Notes under the pieces: generated by a model
What the model saw: the letters and a program-made list of their open reading frames with translations, nothing else
Told to the model about the DNA's origin: nothing
Databases searched by the model: none
Part shown: piece by piece, positions 14,066-20,198 of the stretch
How the letters are laid out: the number at the start of each line of letters is the position of its first letter
Numbering within the stretch: the stretch's first letter is position 1
Assembly: GCA_963801355.1 (NCBI GenBank)
Contig: CAWDEM010000008.1
Location: forward strand, 2,592,001-2,656,000
DNA from: Ignavibacteriota bacterium
Lineage (GTDB): Bacteria; Bacteroidota; Ignavibacteria; UBA10030; UBA6906
Length of the DNA: 64,000 bases
Reading direction: 5' to 3'
Program-made: the position numbers and the translations under genes

Positions 14066-15481
14066 TTATCGTCGCTCTGATTCCGTCGGTTCAGCGTGAA
14101 TGACAACGCGACGGAGCTGGGGAAATTTGTCGTACAGCTTCGTTTCGAGCCGTGAGACTATATGATGGACCTCTTCGAGCGTGAGATGCCGCGCGATCGT
14201 ACAGTCCACGGCCAGGTTGAGCCGTTCACCCATGCGCAGCAGGCGCACACTGGTGCATTTCACGACGTTTTTGTCGGCGATGACCAGCTTTTTGACCGCC
14301 TGTTGGAGACGGTCGTCCTCCGCTGTAATCCCGGTCACCGCTGTCTCGTCGGGCTGATCCTCCTCCATGTGAATGGTCAGATGCTCGACGGAAGGAAGCT
14401 CCCGCCGTATCTCCTGCTCGATCCGGTCGGTCACGCCATGCGCGTCAACGAAACTCTTTCCCTCTTCGTATTCAATATCAAAGGCCACATGGTACTGTCC
14501 GTTAATGAAGTGTACTTCAAGGTTGTGCGGCGGATGGAGGCCGTTCCTGCTGACAATCATTCTGACCTTATCGGCGATGGTCTCATCATTACTCTCGGCC
14601 GGCTCGGCATGGACCACGATATCAATTTCCTTGTGCCGCATGTGGACCGCCTGTTCGATCCTGTCCATGATCGCGTGCGCTTCCTGAAACGGCGTGGTCC
14701 GGCGTACGGCGATGGTTGTGTCGACGAACACCTTGGCTCCGGACGGCCGCAGCCGGATGCTCCGGACTTCCTCCACGCCATCCACCTGGCGGAGAGTCTC
14801 GAGCACCTGCTCATACAGTCCTTCGGGAACGCGATCCATCAGTGCATCAATGGTCCGCTTCCCGAGGCGATAACTCACAAAGAGCACCAGCAATGCGACC
14901 AGAATTGCGGCAACCGCATCCACCCACATGTAGCCGAGTGCTACAAACGCCAATCCGAGCAGGACGACGAGGGAGCTCCACACATCACTCGAGAAGTGGA
15001 GCGCATCGGCTTCGAGCGCCTGGCTGTTGAACTTCTTTGCAACACGCTTCAGGGCCCGGGACCTGCTGATATCGACACCGATCGCCACGACAATGACGAC
15101 AAAGCCCCAGATGTTCGCCTCCACATGGCTTGTGCGGTAGAAGAGGCGTTGAACAGCTTCATAAATTATCCATCCGCACGTAATGATCAGCAGAAGGGTC
15201 TCAGCGAATGCGGAAAGATTCTCGACCTTGCCATGGCCATAGGTGTGTTCGCGGTCGGGCGGACGGTCCGCCACTCGCACCGCAAAATAGGTCATCAGGG
15301 CGGCAAGGAAATCCAGTCCCGAATGCGCCGCCTCGGACAGCAAGCCCAGGCTGTTCGTCTGAAGGCCGACAACGAGCTTCAGCAACGTAATGAAAATGGC
15401 GGCGAGCACCGAAGTGCGCGCAATACGCCGCTTCTCGTTTTTGGGATCTCTCTGCAGGGCGGTGCCGCTATATGATGCCAT
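14066..15481 (-). CDS. Cation diffusion facilitator (FieF-like) with three tandem C-terminal domains
   Basis: EAAHSGLD, HTYGHGKVE, ADALHFSSD; three repeats ending VVHAEP, TIHMEE, VIHAEP. Confidence 0.9.
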   Translation of the reverse strand: MASYSGTALQRDPKNEKRRIARTSVLAAIFITLLKLVVGLQTNSLGLLSEAAHSGLDFLAALMTYFAVRVADRPPDREHTYGHGKVENLSAFAETLLLIITCGWIIYEAVQRLFYRTSHVEANIWGFVVIVVAIGVDISRSRALKRVAKKFNSQALEADALHFSSDVWSSLVVLLGLAFVALGYMWVDAVAAILVALLVLFVSYRLGKRTIDALMDRVPEGLYEQVLETLRQVDGVEEVRSIRLRPSGAKVFVDTTIAVRRTTPFQEAHAIMDRIEQAVHMRHKEIDIVVHAEPAESNDETIADKVRMIVSRNGLHPPHNLEVHFINGQYHVAFDIEYEEGKSFVDAHGVTDRIEQEIRRELPSVEHLTIHMEEDQPDETAVTGITAEDDRLQQAVKKLVIADKNVVKCTSVRLLRMGERLNLAVDCTIARHLTLEEVHHIVSRLETKLYDKFPQLRRVVIHAEPTESERR

Positions 15482-15504: not shown

Positions 15505-15939
15505 TCAGGGTTCCAGGCGAAAACGGACGCGCAATGCGTTTTCTTCGAATGACCAGGATATCAGTCGAAATCGGCCGATGTCTTCTGTCGTTGCCACATG
15601 TGCACCCGCACAGGGACAGGCATCGAAGTCACCAATGCGGATAATACGCACGATCTCCCCGACCTCATCCGGCAGCCGGGAGAGATTGAACTGCTGTTCG
15701 GCTTCCCGCCGGGCAAGGAACTCTTCCCGCACGGGGAGATCGCGGCCGATCTGTTCGTTCACCAGTGCTTCCACGCGGCGCGCCTCCTCCTCGGTGAGAA
15801 GACGTGTAAAACGGTAGTCGGCTTTGGACTTTTTCTTTTCCAGATGTGTTGTAAACGGACGTCCCATGCCGAACAGCTTCGCCAGTGCGCCGGTGAGCAG
15901 GTGTTCGGCCGAATGCATCCGCGGATCAGCTTCTTTCAT
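15505..15939 (-). CDS. alaX: Free-standing alanyl-tRNA editing protein (short AlaX)
   Basis: HSAEH (HxxxH) and CAGAH (CxxxH) zinc motifs, VRIIRIGDFD; 144 aa. Confidence 0.85.
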   Translation of the reverse strand: MKEADPRMHSAEHLLTGALAKLFGMGRPFTTHLEKKKSKADYRFTRLLTEEEARRVEALVNEQIGRDLPVREEFLARREAEQQFNLSRLPDEVGEIVRIIRIGDFDACPCAGAHVATTEDIGRFRLISWSFEENALRVRFRLEP

Positions 15940-15941
15940 TT

Positions 15942-17387
15942 CTATCCTTTCATCACCGCGAGCGGCACCAGCCGCGCCACCTTGCTCGCAATCCCCGCTC
16001 CTTGTACCACATCCACAACCTTATTGACGTTCTTGTACGCATCCGGCTTTTCTTCGGTCAGGCCGCTCCGGCTCTGCCCGCGAACAAGAATGCCCCTGCG
16101 TTTCATCTCCTCCAGCAGTGCCTCGGGGGAGGTGTCCCGCTTGGCTTGCGTCCGGCTCATAGCCCTGCCCGCACCGTGACACGAGGAGCCGAACGTCTCA
16201 GCCATCGCCCGTTCGGTGCCAACCAGGATGTACGATTCCGTGCCCATACTCCCCGGGATCAGCACCGGCTGGCCGACACCGCGCAAATCATCCGGAAGCA
16301 CCGGATGTCCCTTCGGAAAAGCCCGCGTAGCCCCTTTGCGATGGACGAGCACGGTTGTGCGGCGGCCGTTGACACGGTGCTCTTCCTTCTTGGCAATATT
16401 ATGACACACGTCGTACACAACCTGGATGTCATCTGTCCCCATGACCCTCCGGAATACCTGGCGCACTCCGTGCGTCATCATTTGCCGGTTGGCAAACGCG
16501 AAGTTGGCGGCAGCTCCCATTGCCCGCAGATAACTCTCCCCTTCGTGCGATGCGATGGGCACACACGCAAGTTGACGGTCCACGACATTGATCCCATATT
16601 TCTTCATGCTGCCGTCCATCAGGTCAAGGTAATCCGTGCACACTTGATGCCCCAACCCGCGTGAACCGGTATGGATCAGCACAACGATCTGCCCTTTGCG
16701 CACGCCGAAGACACGGGCAGTCGCATCATCATAGATCTCTTTCACTTCCTGAATTTCAAGAAAGTGGTTGCCGGACCCCAGCGTCCCCAGCTGCCGCTGA
16801 CCGCGCTCCTTTGCCCGGCTGCTGACGCTTCCCGGGGCGGCGCCCGGGAGGCATCCGAACTCCTCGATCCGTGCCAGGTCGTTGTCCTCACCATATGAAC
16901 GCCGTACCGCCCAGCGCGCACCGTCTGTCAGCACCTCATCCAGCTCCTTCTCATTCAAGCCCACAGGACCCTTGGAGCCGGTTCCACAGGGAATGTCGCG
17001 GAAGAGCTGGTTCAACAGCGTCGCCAGCTTTGCGCGGATATCCTCGGGGTCTGCGTTCACCGCCAGGAGCCGTACACCACAATTAATGTCGAAACCCACG
17101 CCCCCGGCCGAGACAATCCCGCTCTCCAGATCGGCGGCAGCGACACCACCGATACAGAAGCCGTATCCCTGATGCGCATCGGGCATGGCCAGCGACATGC
17201 CGACAAGACCCGGCAGCGTCGCCACATTGGCGATTTGTTCTGGTGTCTGGTCCGATGCGATCTGTCGCAACAACTCCGCGTCGGCATACACCATGCCGTC
17301 GATCCGCATCCCCTTCTTGGAGGATGCAGGAAGCCTGTAGCGATACTCATCGACACGCTCAAACACGCGCGCACTCCGGGAAGTCAC
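15942..17387 (-). CDS. rtcB: RNA ligase RtcB (archease-associated type)
   Basis: MPDAHQGYGF, VGFDINCGVR, LGTLGSGNHF, HTGSRG, HN, VHRKGAT, PGSMG, SCHGAGR, AYK. Confidence 0.97.
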   Translation of the reverse strand: MTSRSARVFERVDEYRYRLPASSKKGMRIDGMVYADAELLRQIASDQTPEQIANVATLPGLVGMSLAMPDAHQGYGFCIGGVAAADLESGIVSAGGVGFDINCGVRLLAVNADPEDIRAKLATLLNQLFRDIPCGTGSKGPVGLNEKELDEVLTDGARWAVRRSYGEDNDLARIEEFGCLPGAAPGSVSSRAKERGQRQLGTLGSGNHFLEIQEVKEIYDDATARVFGVRKGQIVVLIHTGSRGLGHQVCTDYLDLMDGSMKKYGINVVDRQLACVPIASHEGESYLRAMGAAANFAFANRQMMTHGVRQVFRRVMGTDDIQVVYDVCHNIAKKEEHRVNGRRTTVLVHRKGATRAFPKGHPVLPDDLRGVGQPVLIPGSMGTESYILVGTERAMAETFGSSCHGAGRAMSRTQAKRDTSPEALLEEMKRRGILVRGQSRSGLTEEKPDAYKNVNKVVDVVQGAGIASKVARLVPLAVMKG

Positions 17388-17423: not shown

Positions 17424-17846
17424 TCAAATATCCAGATACACCCGCGCGCCCCATCCCTCATCATCCTGCCACACGGCGAGCTGGTGATAGGTGACGGCTT
17501 TGATATCCATCCGCACATGGTGCTTCCCCGCGCGGAGCGGTTCCCCGGCGACGGTTGCCTCGAGGCGATCCGGAGTGCACAACGAAATCCGGAATTCTTT
17601 CGAAACAAATCCCTGGCCGTCATAAAGATAGAGAATCTCCGAGAGCCAGCGGACGAGCATCTGTTCTGCATCTGCTGCCTGCAGTGTTATGCTTCTCCGT
17701 TCGCTGGTCTCCACGGTGGAGGGATCAAGAATGAGAGAGACGAGTGCGCCGGCCGCACGAGTGAACGCTTCCGCACATGTTGATCCCCGGGCTTCGATGC
17801 CGATATCCGAAGGATGATCCAAGAAGCGCACGCCGGCCGGAGTCAT
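17424..17846 (-). CDS. Archease
   Basis: DHPSDIG N-terminal motif, IKAVTYH, C-terminal VYLDI; directly upstream of rtcB. Confidence 0.95.
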   Translation of the reverse strand: MTPAGVRFLDHPSDIGIEARGSTCAEAFTRAAGALVSLILDPSTVETSERRSITLQAADAEQMLVRWLSEILYLYDGQGFVSKEFRISLCTPDRLEATVAGEPLRAGKHHVRMDIKAVTYHQLAVWQDDEGWGARVYLDI

Positions 17847-17867: not shown

Positions 17868-18023
17868 CCGGGTCTGAAGCCTGGGATTTTTCTCTGGGTT
17901 TAAAGTCTGGGTTTTTCCCCAGACTTTAAGGCCTGAGTTTAAAGCCTGAGTTTTTCCCCAGACTTTAAAGCCTGAGTTTAAAGCCTGAGTTTTTCCCCAG
18001 ACTTCATTCCCTGATTTTTTCTC
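17868..18023. repeat. Degenerate 13-nt tandem array (about 12 units) with a 39-nt higher-order period
   Basis: Units CTGAGTTTAAAGC / CTGAGTTTTTCCC / CAGACTTTAAAGC repeated about three times. Confidence 0.9.
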
Positions 18024-18048
18024 TCAGTCGTCAGTTGTTGGGAGGCAG

Positions 18049-18084
18049 AAAAAAAGGGGGGCTGACGCCAATGGCATCAGCCCC
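18049..18084 (-). terminator. Intrinsic terminator upstream of archease
   Basis: Minus-strand GGGGCUGAUGCC-AUU-GGCGUCAGCCCC then CC and U7. Confidence 0.85.
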
Positions 18085-18197
18085 TGAAAATATGACGGGC
18101 TGGCAGGATCCGGGGACTTACGTCGGGGCCGGACCATCTTCAGCGTCGGGGGGAGTACGCCTGAGCACAGCCCGCCAATACCATCACAGTCGGTACA
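18049..18197 (-). ncRNA. Putative structured leader RNA or sRNA (about 150 nt), family unknown
   Basis: Bounded by a promoter and a terminator; long closing stem, three-way junction with C-rich loops and a GUAA tetraloop. Confidence 0.55.
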
Positions 18198-18202
18198 ACC
18201 GA

Positions 18203-18231
18203 AGGATAGAGAAATTGGGCTCATGATGCAA
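18203..18231 (-). promoter_or_regulatory. Sigma70-type promoter for the leader RNA/archease operon
   Basis: TTGCAT-17nt-TATCCT on minus strand. Confidence 0.6.
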
Positions 18232-18269
18232 GTCCGATTGAAAAATTAATTCTGCGACTGTTCCCTCTG

Positions 18270-20198
18270 TTAAACACGGTGATTCTCATTCGCCCAACCG
18301 GCAATCACCTCGCGGTTGTCACTGCAGCAGATGTCTTTCCCTTCTGGGGTGAATAGTCTCTGAATGCAATGGTCGTAGCTTTTGACGATTTTGCCTCTCA
18401 CTATTTTGAGCGTGCTGTTGAGGAATTGATTCTGCTCGGTAAATCCTTCGGCAAGGACCCCAACGGCCGATGGAAGCCACCGCTCGGGAAAAAGGCCGGC
18501 ATACCGCCCTCCGTGGCGATATCCGTCTATCTCACGCTGAAGCTGCTTCAGTGCGGCACACTGTCCGTCCACTGTTGAGGGATCATACCGGTGGGCCCTC
18601 ATCCACGATAGTACAACCTCCTTGCTGGGGACAATCAGAGCGACGGTGTACGGCGATTGATTGTTGTAGAGCATCACCTGGTCTATGTATTGTGACTGGC
18701 TGGCGATGGCCTCTTCAATTCCTTCCGGGCTGTACTTTTCTCCGTCGCTCGCAATCAACAGACTCTTGGTCCTGCCCAGCACGTACAGGAACCCGTCCCC
18801 GTCAAGATAACCCAGATCGCCCGTGTACAACCACCCGTTGCGAATAACTTCTTCTGTCGCCTTTTCGTTCCTCCAGTACCCCGCCATGACATTCCCGCCG
18901 CGGACGACAATCTCCCCCTGCCTGCCCGCGGGAAGCGCTGAGCCGTCCTCCGCACAGATCTTGATTTCCAGGGAAGCAACAACCTTTCCGGAAGAGCCCA
19001 ATTTGTGTCCGGCCATTACATTGGCCGAAATGACCGGTGCGGCTTCAGACAACCCGTATCCTTGCAGCATGGGAATCCCGATGGCATAGAAGAACCGCTG
19101 GAGTTCGATGTCGAGCAGTGCTCCTCCCCCGACAATGAATTCCAGCCGCCCCCCGAAGTTCTGGCGGATTTTGGAAAAGAGGATTGCGTCAAACAGTGCA
19201 ACGAGAGGCTTGAGGAACATCCGGAACCCCTTCCCCCGTCGCCAGCCGTCAGCGTTGAACAGATATCCCGTCTTCAGGCCTGCCTTGAACAACATCTGTG
19301 CGAGCTTTCCTTTCTTTAGAATTGCCCCCTCGATGCCTTTACGGAAATTCCTCGCGAGTGCCGGCACGCTCAGGAGAAATGTGGGGCGTGTCTCACGGAT
19401 ATTGAGGGGTATATTCTTCAGAGTTTCTATCGGTGTCTTGCCGACCTGCACGGACGCCATCGATGCGCCGTTTCGCATCAGCGTGTAGATCCCCGCAGTG
19501 TGGGCAAAACAGTGGTCCCAGGGAAGTATCAACAGCGAACAGTACCACTCGGGAACCGGCAGCAGACCCGAAGACTGTTCCACGTTGGTGATGTAATTCA
19601 GGTGCGTCAGCACCACGCCCTTGGGATCGGCGGTTGTTCCGGACGTGTAGGAGATTGTTGCGGGATCGTTTCCGAGTACGGAGGCAACGCGCTTCTCCAG
19701 TTGACCTTCGTGCGTGCTCAGGAACTCCCGTCCGGCACGGGTAACGTCGGCTGCTGAAACCTCGCCCGGTCCGTATTGATCCATCGGATCCAGCATGATC
19801 ACTGTCTCCAACGCGGGAAGCGACTGCCGCAGCTGCCTGACCTTCGCCGCCTGGGTCCCGGAAACGATAGCCATCCGGCATTCCGCGTGAGCGAGGCGAA
19901 ACTGCAGGTCAGCCCCCTCCTGAAGCTTCACCGACAGCGGTACATTGATCGCGGCGGCGTAGAACATACCCAGCTCCGCGATGACCCAATCATTTCTCCC
20001 CTCGGCGATCAGCGCTATGCGATCCCCCTTCCGGATGCCCAGACTGACCAGGCCTGCTCCAAATGCCCGGACGCTTTCCTTCGCCTGCGCGTAGGTCATC
20101 GCTTCGAAGCGATGCCCTCGTTTCTCCAGCAAGAAAGAATTATTGGCAAACCGTTCGACACTGGCCTCGAAGAGGGCGGGCAGCGTGGTTGGAGACAT
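18270..20198 (-). CDS. Long-chain fatty-acid--CoA ligase (AMP-forming)
   Basis: YTSGTTADPKG, GYGLSE, GWLYTGDLG, GRTK. Confidence 0.9.
   Translation of the reverse strand: MSPTTLPALFEASVERFANNSFLLEKRGHRFEAMTYAQAKESVRAFGAGLVSLGIRKGDRIALIAEGRNDWVIAELGMFYAAAINVPLSVKLQEGADLQFRLAHAECRMAIVSGTQAAKVRQLRQSLPALETVIMLDPMDQYGPGEVSAADVTRAGREFLSTHEGQLEKRVASVLGNDPATISYTSGTTADPKGVVLTHLNYITNVEQSSGLLPVPEWYCSLLILPWDHCFAHTAGIYTLMRNGASMASVQVGKTPIETLKNIPLNIRETRPTFLLSVPALARNFRKGIEGAILKKGKLAQMLFKAGLKTGYLFNADGWRRGKGFRMFLKPLVALFDAILFSKIRQNFGGRLEFIVGGGALLDIELQRFFYAIGIPMLQGYGLSEAAPVISANVMAGHKLGSSGKVVASLEIKICAEDGSALPAGRQGEIVVRGGNVMAGYWRNEKATEEVIRNGWLYTGDLGYLDGDGFLYVLGRTKSLLIASDGEKYSPEGIEEAIASQSQYIDQVMLYNNQSPYTVALIVPSKEVVLSWMRAHRYDPSTVDGQCAALKQLQREIDGYRHGGRYAGLFPERWLPSAVGVLAEGFTEQNQFLNSTLKIVRGKIVKSYDHCIQRLFTPEGKDICCSDNREVIAGWANENHRV

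Follow-up and report, generated by a model that had tools for sequence, protein, structure and literature searches.

A near-invariant structured RNA upstream of an archease–rtcB operon in Ignavibacteriota, a candidate termination-based leader

The window, the 64,000-nucleotide stretch of an Ignavibacteriota contig analysed here, carries on its minus strand an operon that joins RNA repair to tRNA editing and metal efflux. It encodes archease (17424..17846; Pfam PF01951, E 2.1e-39), the RNA ligase RtcB (15942..17387; PF01139, E 1.6e-171), for which the genome has no second match, an AlaX-like tRNA-editing domain protein (tRNA_SAD; 15505..15939; PF07973, E 4.5e-10; partial matches below cut-off to the NCBIfam AlaXM and alaS models) and a FieF/MntE-like cation-efflux transporter of the CDF type (14066..15481; PF01545 and PF16916; TIGR01297 at 280 bits). 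On the same strand and 5' of these genes lies an acyl-CoA ligase-like gene (AMP-binding; 18270..20198; PF00501, E 2.3e-68). The stretch between ligase and archease was singled out in a preliminary description as a possible riboswitch-like leader. Does it encode an RNA that controls the operon and, if so, how might it act?

Architecture of the RNA, its terminator and its promoter-like elements

Read on the minus strand, positions 18231-18049 comprise a promoter-like pair of hexamers, an RNA that folds as a three-way junction (18187-18085) and an intrinsic terminator (18084-18049). The minimum free energy (MFE) is -68.6 kcal/mol (z = -3.59), none of 200 shuffled sequences folds equally well, and the predicted helices are reproduced. 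The core (18085..18187) is supported by the fold, the consensus fold and the covariance-model matches. The long closing stem that had been proposed is present in the MFE fold, where P1 pairs UGGCGGGCUG (18177-18168) with CAGCCCGUCA (18102-18093). The consensus fold agrees, and with an extension that pairs GC (18166-18165) with GC (18104-18103) P1 runs overall from 18177-18165 with 18104-18093. Beyond it, the 5' flank GUGAUGGUAU (18178..18190) pairs with the linker that follows P1 to form helix P0, which is found in the MFE folds of nine out of nine homologues in differing registers.

Both inner arms are found in the fold and in the consensus fold. P2 pairs UCAG-G-CGU (18164-18157) with ACG-CUGA (18146-18140) and closes the loop L2, ACUCCCCCCG (18156-18147). 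After the joining strand J2/3 (18139-18136), P3 pairs GGUCCGG (18135-18129) with CCGGAUC (18113-18107), and it contains an internal loop CCCC (18128-18125) and an inner GAC/GUC helix capped by GUAA (GAC-GUAA-GUC, 18124-18115; cap 18121-18118). P2 and P3 thus recover the GCGU/ACGC hairpin and the GUCCGG arm of the preliminary description. The inner CAGG/CCUG helix described with them is not recovered: the folds instead pair UCAG with CUGA inside P2, and CCUG becomes CCCG in two of 11 sequences with no compensation. L2 contains the run CCCCCC, and the second C-run is the CCCC internal loop of P3, which is missing in G088, the one sister-genus genome that has the RNA. The word CCCCGACG does occur twice, at 18151-18144 and 18128-18121; the whole window has four matches to it where about five are expected, and the two here are 23 nt apart.

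Two further readings of this segment were discarded. An alternative 'fold B', in which the C-run of L2 pairs with the G-run of P1 and the outer helix is shifted, is the MFE structure in four of nine full-length leaders. Checked by hand, it is broken by substitutions in G003, L098 and L146 and is therefore not a conserved switch. A leader-peptide frame of 14-15 codons starting with AUG or GUG is present in most members (by reading), and it is shifted by insertions of one nucleotide in L126 and two in L079; G088 has no such frame.

The intrinsic terminator that had been described was found by the terminator scan (18049..18084), with its stem-loop at 18084-18058. It has 12 base pairs, nine of them G-C, and a loop AUU, followed by CC and U7, and its hairpin is worth -24.0 kcal/mol. 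All 11 genus-type sequences have it, with a single compensatory A-U/G-C pair and the lower nine pairs invariant; the copy in L003 has the same hairpin and U-run form as that of the window, and the run is U7-U9 in several members. The terminator is formed in the MFE structure of all nine full-length leaders (-20 to -24 kcal/mol, next to -38 to -42 kcal/mol for the aptamer domain), such that the default fold is terminator-on.

Upstream, the proposed promoter is made up of a -35-like hexamer TTGCAT (18226..18231) and, after a 17-nt spacer, a -10-like hexamer TATCCT (18203..18208), from which transcription would start near 18196. An A/T-rich tract 5' of the -35 hexamer (18241..18250) may act like an UP element. 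TTGC[AT]T stands at the identical position in ten out of ten relatives, as does TAT[CT][CG]T with the 17-nt spacer, and the ten relatives that have upstream sequence all show a T- or A-run in place of the tract. The position of the promoter is thus kept, but a consensus scan does not call it because TTGCAT matches TTGACA at only three of six positions. The sigma-70 scan returned no promoter in L003 and none 3' of the RNA in L012, and comparison of ten relatives revealed no positionally conserved promoter-like site between terminator and archease. Three sets of metatranscriptome contigs yielded no placement here, which weighs neither for nor against transcription.

Distribution and conservation

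Thirteen related loci were gathered, and in each the RNA is co-oriented with archease or its remnant and immediately precedes it. It occurs in all five genomes of the genus, in one of six genomes of the sister genus (G088) and on eight metagenome contigs among those listed. The pattern scans gave real matches in four of 36 genome-contig stretches and in eight of the 80 metagenome loci listed (89 stretches reported); the remaining stretches have only the hairpin word in common. In ten relatives 29-90 nt separate the terminator stem from the ATG of archease, and full-length relatives reach covariance-model scores of 117-130 bits.

The core hardly varies. Across nine sequences 71 of 76 core columns (93%) are invariant, while for the adjacent archease gene the same comparison leaves 66 of 150 columns invariant and two of 50 third codon positions (4%). 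This pattern points to strong purifying constraint on the core. Such near-total invariance is unusual in itself and suggests that almost every nucleotide is read by some partner. The tetraloop of P3 is GAAA, GUAA or GCAA, a GNRA loop that varies at N only, which is the pattern expected for an RNA with a tertiary fold.

Pairing is maintained in 98% of cells over 11 sequences, but covariation within the genus is almost nil: one compensatory pair out of 41, located in the terminator, with the 17 pairs of P2 and P3 never varying. When G088 is added, five pairs change on both sides, all of them from that single sequence as aligned by the model itself.

Beyond these loci, covariance-model searches of the family (68 genomes), the order (151) and the class (151), with G000 counted in each set, gave no credible further match, and with filters switched off a search of 16 archease loci without the RNA matched G088 alone. 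The weak matches that did appear are best discarded. The one in G027 overlaps the apparent start of a lipoprotein-like open reading frame on the minus strand (by reading), and that in G283 falls within an 894-residue frame on the opposite strand. In G023 the match, which agrees with the P2 hairpin at 22 of 23 nt, is antisense to a long SecA-like frame (by reading) and is considered a coincidence since the genome of the window has no such site within three mismatches. Weak matches also occurred in G005 (E 0.39) and G230 (E 0.77). Four relatives that lack the RNA have the same four-gene operon, which therefore does not need it.

Two outlying cases constrain the function. In G088 the RNA core is preceded, at a distance of about 85 nt, by a near-consensus promoter (TTGACA-17-TATATT, 11 of 12 positions), whose blocks CCCTTGACACT and TATATTCG are common to the archease-operon promoter of two sister species without the RNA. 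The RNA thus lies between operon promoter and archease, inside the 5' leader of the operon. Its P1 stem followed by U7 is the only terminator-like feature there, with no separate terminator hairpin, and the L2 hairpin is the part common to both genera. The second case is G003 and contig L098, where rtcB and most of archease have been lost and the RNA is kept unchanged, now followed by the AlaX-like and CDF genes. The 85 core nucleotides show no difference between the two, while the decayed region alongside differs. The proposed tie to archease–rtcB therefore stands as far as position goes (13 of 13 loci upstream of archease or its remnant), but the RNA outlives rtcB in this lineage and is consequently not specific to RtcB.

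A candidate transcriptional gate and its alternatives

We tentatively read the RNA as a cis-acting, termination-based leader, attenuator- or riboswitch-like, of the archease–rtcB–AlaX-like–CDF operon, and we would give this a little less than an even chance. A cis-acting, default-off leader is favoured because there is no conserved downstream promoter and because the RNA of G088 lies between promoter and archease. In such a scheme transcription would begin at the conserved TTGCAT-17-TATCCT, and the nascent RNA would fold into a stable three-way junction of P0/P1, P2 with its invariant loop and P3 with its GNRA cap. The terminator hairpin would form by default and release an RNA of about 150 nt, leaving the operon to be expressed through read-through only, at a rate set by an effector that recognises the invariant loop or the junction. 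We infer both the regulation of termination and the kind of effector. We lean towards a macromolecule, protein or RNA, over a small metabolite, since a helix as long and stable as P1 should need no ligand to form and since hardly any nucleotide varies, even in the stems. The unusual length and G+C content of P1/P0 for a ligand-gated helix also count against the leader model itself, as do the lack of a conserved antiterminator, the near absence of covariation and the very narrow distribution.

A more specific form of this reading is doubtful but would carry the most consequence. Here the RNA would be a sensor, either a new riboswitch class or a switch responsive to RNA or protein, whose invariant C-rich loop and junction read an RNA-damage or a cofactor/metal signal and gate an operon for repair, editing and efflux; such signals may include Mn2+, GTP, 2',3'-cyclic nucleotides or broken tRNA. 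If true, it would give RtcB operons their first regulator made of RNA, a counterpart of the protein RtcR. Conservation of this degree in a leader suggests that RNA repair, tRNA quality control and metal efflux in this uncultured lineage respond to a regulatory signal that has so far escaped notice.

The serious rival is a stand-alone trans-acting sRNA of about 150 nt, whose exposed C-rich loop CUCCCCCC would pair with G-rich sites in mRNAs or bind a protein, its position being incidental or put to dual use. We consider this possible, if on balance unlikely. Several features fit it well: the RNA has conserved promoter-like elements of its own (ten of ten relatives), a strong terminator with U7-U9 in several members and a long helix that closes its 5' and 3' ends; the L2 hairpin is shared by both genera; and the RNA is unchanged in the G003/L098 lineage that has lost rtcB and archease. 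C-rich-loop sRNAs are moreover an established kind, for example 6C (excerpts of PMC6486639), with which our RNA shares a C-rich loop (six consecutive C in L2), a short terminator-ended form and high conservation. It is unlike 6C in belonging to a different phylum, in folding as a three-way junction where 6C has two simple hairpins, in its fixed operon-leader position, in giving no Rfam match at E<=10 and in having only one C-rich loop common to both genera. The host range of 6C, which we take to be RF01066 in Rfam, is Actinobacteria. What weighs against a free sRNA is that strand and location are constant, archease following after 29-90 nt and no conserved promoter lying in between, that the G088 copy is downstream of the operon promoter and that invariance extends over the whole core, stems included, and not over a seed only as in base-pairing sRNAs. 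In a crude target count GGGGGGAG shows no enrichment ahead of start codons (25 of 195, compared with 19-36 of 124-238 for six scrambled motifs), which also speaks against an anti-Shine–Dalgarno target set, and no complementarity longer than 15 nt, as expected of long antisense targets, exists elsewhere in the genome.

A riboswitch for a small molecule or ion, gating rtcB by metal, nucleotide or 2',3'-cyclic nucleotide as first suggested, is improbable. It would use the 5' segment GAUGGUAUUGGC as an antiterminator by pairing it with the 5' arm of the terminator, GCUGAUGCCAUU. All 12 positions of this pairing are indeed available in the window and in G002, and promoter, aptamer-like junction, terminator and operon have a riboswitch-like layout; RtcB is Mn/GTP-dependent, and the operon also has a CDF metal exporter. 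The pairing, however, falls to 6-9 of 12 positions in eight other sequences, and a G-to-A change in L146 retains P1 as A-U while turning the antiterminator pair into A-C. The sole invariant alternative, six base pairs between the 3' strand of P1 and the 5' arm of the terminator, never varies and is for that reason uninformative. G088 has no separate terminator hairpin for such a switch to act on, the RNA persists without rtcB, and neither the NiCo and Mn models nor any other riboswitch model matches.

Even less probable is a constitutive element, in which the hairpins would do no more than terminate transcription from the upstream gene or insulate the operon, with the junction as a stabilising 3' structure. 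The ligase stop codon (18270) is 38 nt ahead of the -35 hexamer on the same strand as the RNA, and since no terminator intervenes, upstream transcripts would end at 18049-18084; the terminator-on default of all nine leaders is also in keeping with it. On the other side, the ligase gene is absent 5' of the RNA in G088, a plain terminator needs no 100-nt junction with 71 of 76 columns invariant, and the conserved promoter-like elements belong to the RNA itself.

A self-cleaving ribozyme, whose products with 2',3'-cyclic phosphate and 5'-OH ends would be RtcB substrates, is very improbable: a compact, invariant, GNRA-capped junction does adjoin rtcB, and CUGAAGA at 18143-18137 resembles the hammerhead box CUGANGA, but that form is found in the window only (CUGAAAA or CUGAAAC in ten of 11 sequences), junction strands of 0, 4 and 2 nt do not suit a hammerhead core, no hammerhead, twister, twister-sister, pistol, hatchet, HDV or hairpin model matches at E<=10, and the RNA survives the loss of rtcB.

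Relation to known RNAs and to regulators of rtcB

As far as sequence comparison goes, the RNA is best classed as a new family of a known kind with a narrow distribution, one genus and one further species. The expectation of novelty held up against Rfam 15 (4227 models), for which no match reaches the gathering score in the whole window. At E<=10 no row between 17600 and 18500 overlaps the folded core, and the only one that touches the element is a suhB/mmgR row at 18041-18082, on the terminator, which scores 13.1 bits (gathering score 41) at E 9.6. At E<=1 no match lies on the RNA in L012, L107 or L005. Full-text literature searches turned up neither a riboswitch nor another RNA leader ahead of rtcB or archease, and no riboswitches of this kind in Ignavibacteria.

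The known kind is that of terminator-type riboswitches and attenuators, 'orphan' riboswitch candidates among them, with which the RNA shares a promoter, a GNRA-capped multi-helix junction, an intrinsic terminator and a co-oriented operon; in G088 the closing helix even doubles as terminator stem. It differs from known leaders of this type in that it belongs to no Rfam family, has no conserved antiterminator, has a far longer and more stable P1/P0, and has stems that are near-invariant rather than covarying. Despite the CDF exporter in the operon, the metal riboswitches (NiCo/czcD, yybP-ykoY Mn) give no match at E<=10.

Published accounts of bacterial rtcB operons name the protein RtcR as regulator or Y RNAs as companions, YrlA and YrlB being encoded in the rsr-rtcBA RNA-repair operon (excerpts of PMC7790460 and PMC4201824). 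Like the Y RNAs described there, ours is a non-coding RNA beside rtcB whose 5' end pairs with its 3' end over a long stem; unlike them, it is retained in a genome without rtcB. A Y RNA can be set aside: Ro60/TROVE (PF05731) has no match in the own genome, which is 100% complete, while the control matches in Deinococcus and Bacteroides, and the tRNA-like module of the YrlA type is missing, with no such gene called by ARAGORN across the window and no match in Rfam. RtcR is a CARF-domain, sigma-54 enhancer-binding activator of rtcBA that answers damaged tRNAs (PMC7790460, in the portion consulted). Our RNA would resemble it as a dedicated regulator heading an rtcB operon, and would be its functional counterpart if it senses RNA damage, but it is an RNA and not a protein, and for it a damage signal is conjectural.

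The remaining known classes fit no better. Rfam has no T-box match, and the best complementarity to 47 tRNAs (10.5) lies within the range of 30 shuffles (9.5-13.5) and is at chance level. The genome has its SRP RNA elsewhere and gives no match to the 6S model, nor is the fold 6S-like.

The other 11 Rfam rows at E<=10 between 17600 and 18500 fall in a 39-nt tandem repeat, which the repeat scan placed at 17894..18018 (minus strand, about 3.2 copies) in the interval between terminator and archease. This array is present in this genome only and absent from ten other genus-type sequences. Partial copies of the repeat occur at six other places in the genome.

Anatomy and predicted fold of the element

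The flagged region covers 183 bases of the minus strand and contains four elements in series. An A/T-rich tract and a promoter-like pair (−35-like TTGCAT at 18231–18226, a 17 nt spacer and −10-like TATCCT at 18208–18203) are followed by a core RNA of 103 nt (18187–18085) and a G+C-rich terminator hairpin of 12 bp (18084–18058), which runs into CC and seven U. The intrinsic terminator proposed in the preliminary description was called by the terminator scan and is included in the full-length MFE fold of all nine genus leaders. The proposed promoter was not called by a sigma-70 scan of the window, since TTGCAT agrees with TTGACA at 3 of 6 positions, but it holds up in position: TTGC[AT]T-17-TAT[CT][CG]T lies at a constant distance from the core, preceded by a T/A run, in all ten sequences with upstream DNA.

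The segment 18200–18040 folds at −68.6 kcal/mol in ViennaRNA (z = −3.59), a value that none of 200 shuffles equalled; the observation is real and well above chance. The predicted fold is a three-way junction. Helix P1 consists of UGGCGGGCUG/CAGCCCGUCA, extended by GC/GC beyond a bulged U, P2 of UCAG-G-CGU/ACG-CUGA with a C-rich 10 nt loop, L2 (ACUCCCCCCG), and P3 of GGUCCGG/CCGGAUC with a CCCC internal loop, an inner GAC/GUC helix and a GUAA cap. The octamer CCCCGACG occurs twice in the element with a spacing of 23 nt. Predicted energies among the genus leaders are −38 to −42 kcal/mol for the aptamer domain and −20 to −24 kcal/mol for the terminator; in all nine MFE folds the 5′ flank forms pairs with the linker that follows P1.

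The surrounding genes lie on the minus strand, as does the element. A 4Fe–4S protein, a methyltransferase and an AMP-binding acyl-CoA ligase (18270–20198) are encoded upstream of the element. Downstream follow archease (17846–17424), RtcB (17387–15942), an AlaX-like tRNA_SAD protein of 144 aa (15939–15505) and a CDF exporter of 471 aa that resembles FieF/MntE (15481–14066). A 39 nt tandem repeat of about 3.2 copies (17894–18018, minus strand) separates the terminator from archease, in the source genome only among 11 genus-type sequences. Partial copies at six further places in the genome suggest a small family of dispersed repeats; the last copy of the array can form an 11 bp hairpin, and the repeat yields a weak Rfam Termite-leu match (22.7 bits versus a gathering score of 51).

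Distribution and conservation

The element is single-copy in the source genome. BLAST recovered it from all four other genomes of the genus (84–94% identity) and from none of the 56 further relatives. Over all 68 family genomes, a covariance model of five genus sequences scored the genus at 120–130 bits and G088, a species of a sister genus, at 30.3 bits (E = 3e-4 per genome). The G088 match lies about 60 nt upstream of an archease–rtcB pair and has the same neighbours, in the order Fer4, methyltransferase, RNA, archease, rtcB, AlaX-like, CDF; it is credible because this synteny is independent of the model. Archease occurs in 20 of the 68 family genomes and is preceded by the RNA only in the genus and G088. 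With G088 included, a second model was run over 151 class and 151 order genomes, the source genome being counted in each, and added no credible member. The P2 hairpin, used as an exact pattern against one genome per prokaryote species, gave 36 stretches, of which just four are the full element by covariance model (two labelled Ignavibacteriae, one Bacteroidota and one Bacteroidetes). Metagenomes contain at least eight (8 of the 80 loci listed, with 89 stretches reported), one of which is truncated at the 5′ end. The leader RNA of the preliminary description has homologues upstream of archease or its remnant in the genus, in G088 and in metagenomes. It represents a new family of structured RNAs whose range is narrow, comprising one Ignavibacteria genus and one further species.

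The pattern scan also returned a tandem unit of about 27 nt with a CGGCGTCCTCCCCCCGACGCCGGGATT-like hairpin word on a Pirellulales MAG contig (L055 5653–5725), which is unrelated by covariance model (E = 0.47). In the relative G023, a long, apparently SecA-like ORF carries on its antisense strand a sequence that matches the P2 hairpin at 22 of 23 nt (L168 1501–1569); we judge this a coincidence, as the source genome has no such site within three mismatches.

In nine sequences having both the core and the archease start, 71 of 76 core columns are invariant (mean pairwise identity 0.98), compared with 66 of 150 columns in the adjacent 150 nt of archease (0.73) and 2 of 50 third codon positions. 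Neutral sites are therefore saturated and the RNA is nearly frozen, in loops and stems both. The few changes fit the predicted fold. Three P1 pairs change on one side with pairing kept (G-U to G-C or A-U; C-G to U-G; U-G to U-A), a single compensatory A-U/G-C pair occurs in the terminator and the tetraloop is GAAA, GUAA or GCAA, a GNRA pattern; the 17 pairs of P2, P3 and the inner helix show zero variation. Adding G088 gives five pairs that change on both sides, which is weak support since all come from this one sequence, aligned by the model itself. The structure is neither proven nor contradicted by covariation. Both genera share the 5′ flank (UGAU.GUUU.G), P1, the entire P2 hairpin with its loop (NCUCCCCCCG), the P3 base and a GAAA cap. 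The likeness does not extend to the C-rich internal loop within P3. The G088 leader carries a second, L2-like C-run, UCCCCCCGUGC, about 50 nt upstream of the core (L012 1444–1454), reminiscent of the two CCCCGACG octamers in genus members.

Known RNA families and candidate functions

In agreement with the novelty put forward in the preliminary description, Rfam 15 has zero matches at gathering score in the whole window. No Rfam row at E ≤ 10 overlaps the folded core, and the sole row on the element is suhB/mmgR at the terminator (13.1 bits versus a gathering score of 41, E = 9.6). ARAGORN found zero tRNAs in the window, and none of the known ribozyme and riboswitch models matches the element. 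A Y RNA is disfavoured because the genome lacks a Ro60/TROVE gene; SRP RNA is found elsewhere in the genome, the 6S model has no match in it, and small coding frames in the element are disrupted by indels among relatives. Among known systems the nearest are terminator-type riboswitch leaders, whose mode of action the element would share although tests placed it in no known class; C-rich-loop sRNAs, for example 6C; and the Y RNAs and RtcR found with rtcB operons elsewhere. Full-text literature searches gave no paper joining a riboswitch with rtcB and archease, and nothing relevant on an rtcB leader, terminator or attenuation, on noncoding RNA upstream of archease or on Ignavibacteria riboswitches; in one preprint RtcB appears only as a ligation reagent.

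We tentatively favour, at a little under even odds, a default-off transcription-terminating leader of the archease–rtcB–AlaX-like–CDF operon. The leader would terminate by default and the operon would be transcribed via read-through. The terminator stem lies 29, 33, 44, 44, 54, 73, 73, 89, 90 and 90 nt from the archease ATG in relatives, and about 211 nt from it in the window only because of the repeat insertion. This interval has no promoter-like site at a conserved position in genus-type sequences; the best isolated matches are TTGGCA-18-TATCTT in the congener G002 and ACGACA-17-TATTGT in the element-carrying stretch L146, with none in the congener G003. In G088 a near-consensus promoter (TTGACA-17-TATATT, 11/12) precedes the core by about 85 nt, and the stretch from the RNA to archease holds nothing resembling a promoter. 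The flanks of the G088 promoter, CCCTTGACACT and TATATTCG, recur unchanged in two sister species that have an archease operon without the RNA; in G088 the RNA was therefore placed inside the operon leader. The 10 bp P1 of G088 runs straight into CUUUUUUU, so that the junction itself is the terminator hairpin. Leader anatomy and MFE folds argue that termination is the default state, and expression of the operon appears to require read-through. As P1 is unusually stable and the stems are invariant, a macromolecular partner seems a more plausible effector than a small ligand. Just before the archease start, the genus-member stretches L003, L004, L146, L079, L126 and L082 carry AATTCTGAATTCTGA ... 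GAATTGATC[TG]TGAGG, with hairpin potential; it is absent in the window, G002 and the G003 lineage.

A stand-alone sRNA working through the C-rich loop is a less probable but serious possibility. Complementarity to the genome's 47 tRNAs is at chance level, the L2 complement is not enriched before start codons, and the source genome contains no long antisense site for the RNA.

The riboswitch of the preliminary description, with a 12-position antiterminator (18185–18174 with 18081–18070), is unlikely, since the pairing is complete only in the window and G002. Eight other 5′-flanked sequences keep 9, 9, 9, 9, 8, 7, 7 and 6 of 12, and a G-to-A change in L146 retains P1 (A-U) and puts A-C into the antiterminator. 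No conserved antiterminator was found among the genus leaders. In all 11 sequences a 6 bp pairing (C[A/G]GCCC with GGGCUG) is possible between the 3′ strand of P1 and the 5′ arm of the terminator, both partners being invariant. Another global fold, which joins the L2 C-run to the P1 G-run, is the MFE in four of nine leaders; on checking by hand, it is broken by substitutions in G003, L098 and L146. A plain constitutive terminator structure is more doubtful still, and a self-cleaving ribozyme is highly improbable given that no known ribozyme model matches.

Persistence of the RNA after loss of rtcB

In G003 just the opening ∼17 codons of archease stand after the terminator; the rest of that gene and the whole of rtcB are absent, the AlaX-like and CDF genes come next, and the genome (94% complete) has no RtcB anywhere. 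In L098, a metagenome contig from a close relative of G003, archease has decayed differently, into an N-terminal piece and a frame-shifted C-terminal piece, and the same AlaX-like gene follows with no rtcB. These stretches (L047 3560–4300, from G003, and L098 1100–1596) are two decay stages of one lineage, with the RNA, AlaX-like and CDF intact. The two cores show no difference in 85 columns and the neighbouring decayed stretch is full of substitutions and indels; the RNA is thus under selection without archease or RtcB, and in this lineage it either controls the AlaX-like and CDF genes that are left or acts alone. The same four-gene operon is present in 4 of 12 RNA-less relatives examined, so it can do without the RNA. 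By these sequence comparisons, the RNA is not tied to RtcB alone.

Some genes of these operons were matched by tblastn in pieces, with possible frameshifts or assembly errors: the G088 CDF gene in two adjacent pieces (L074 6142–7537) and rtcB of another relative, G087, in four (L184 402–1816). G088 also has a second RtcB-family match, in two pieces, on another contig (G088:C15:71932-73069; L175, L178).
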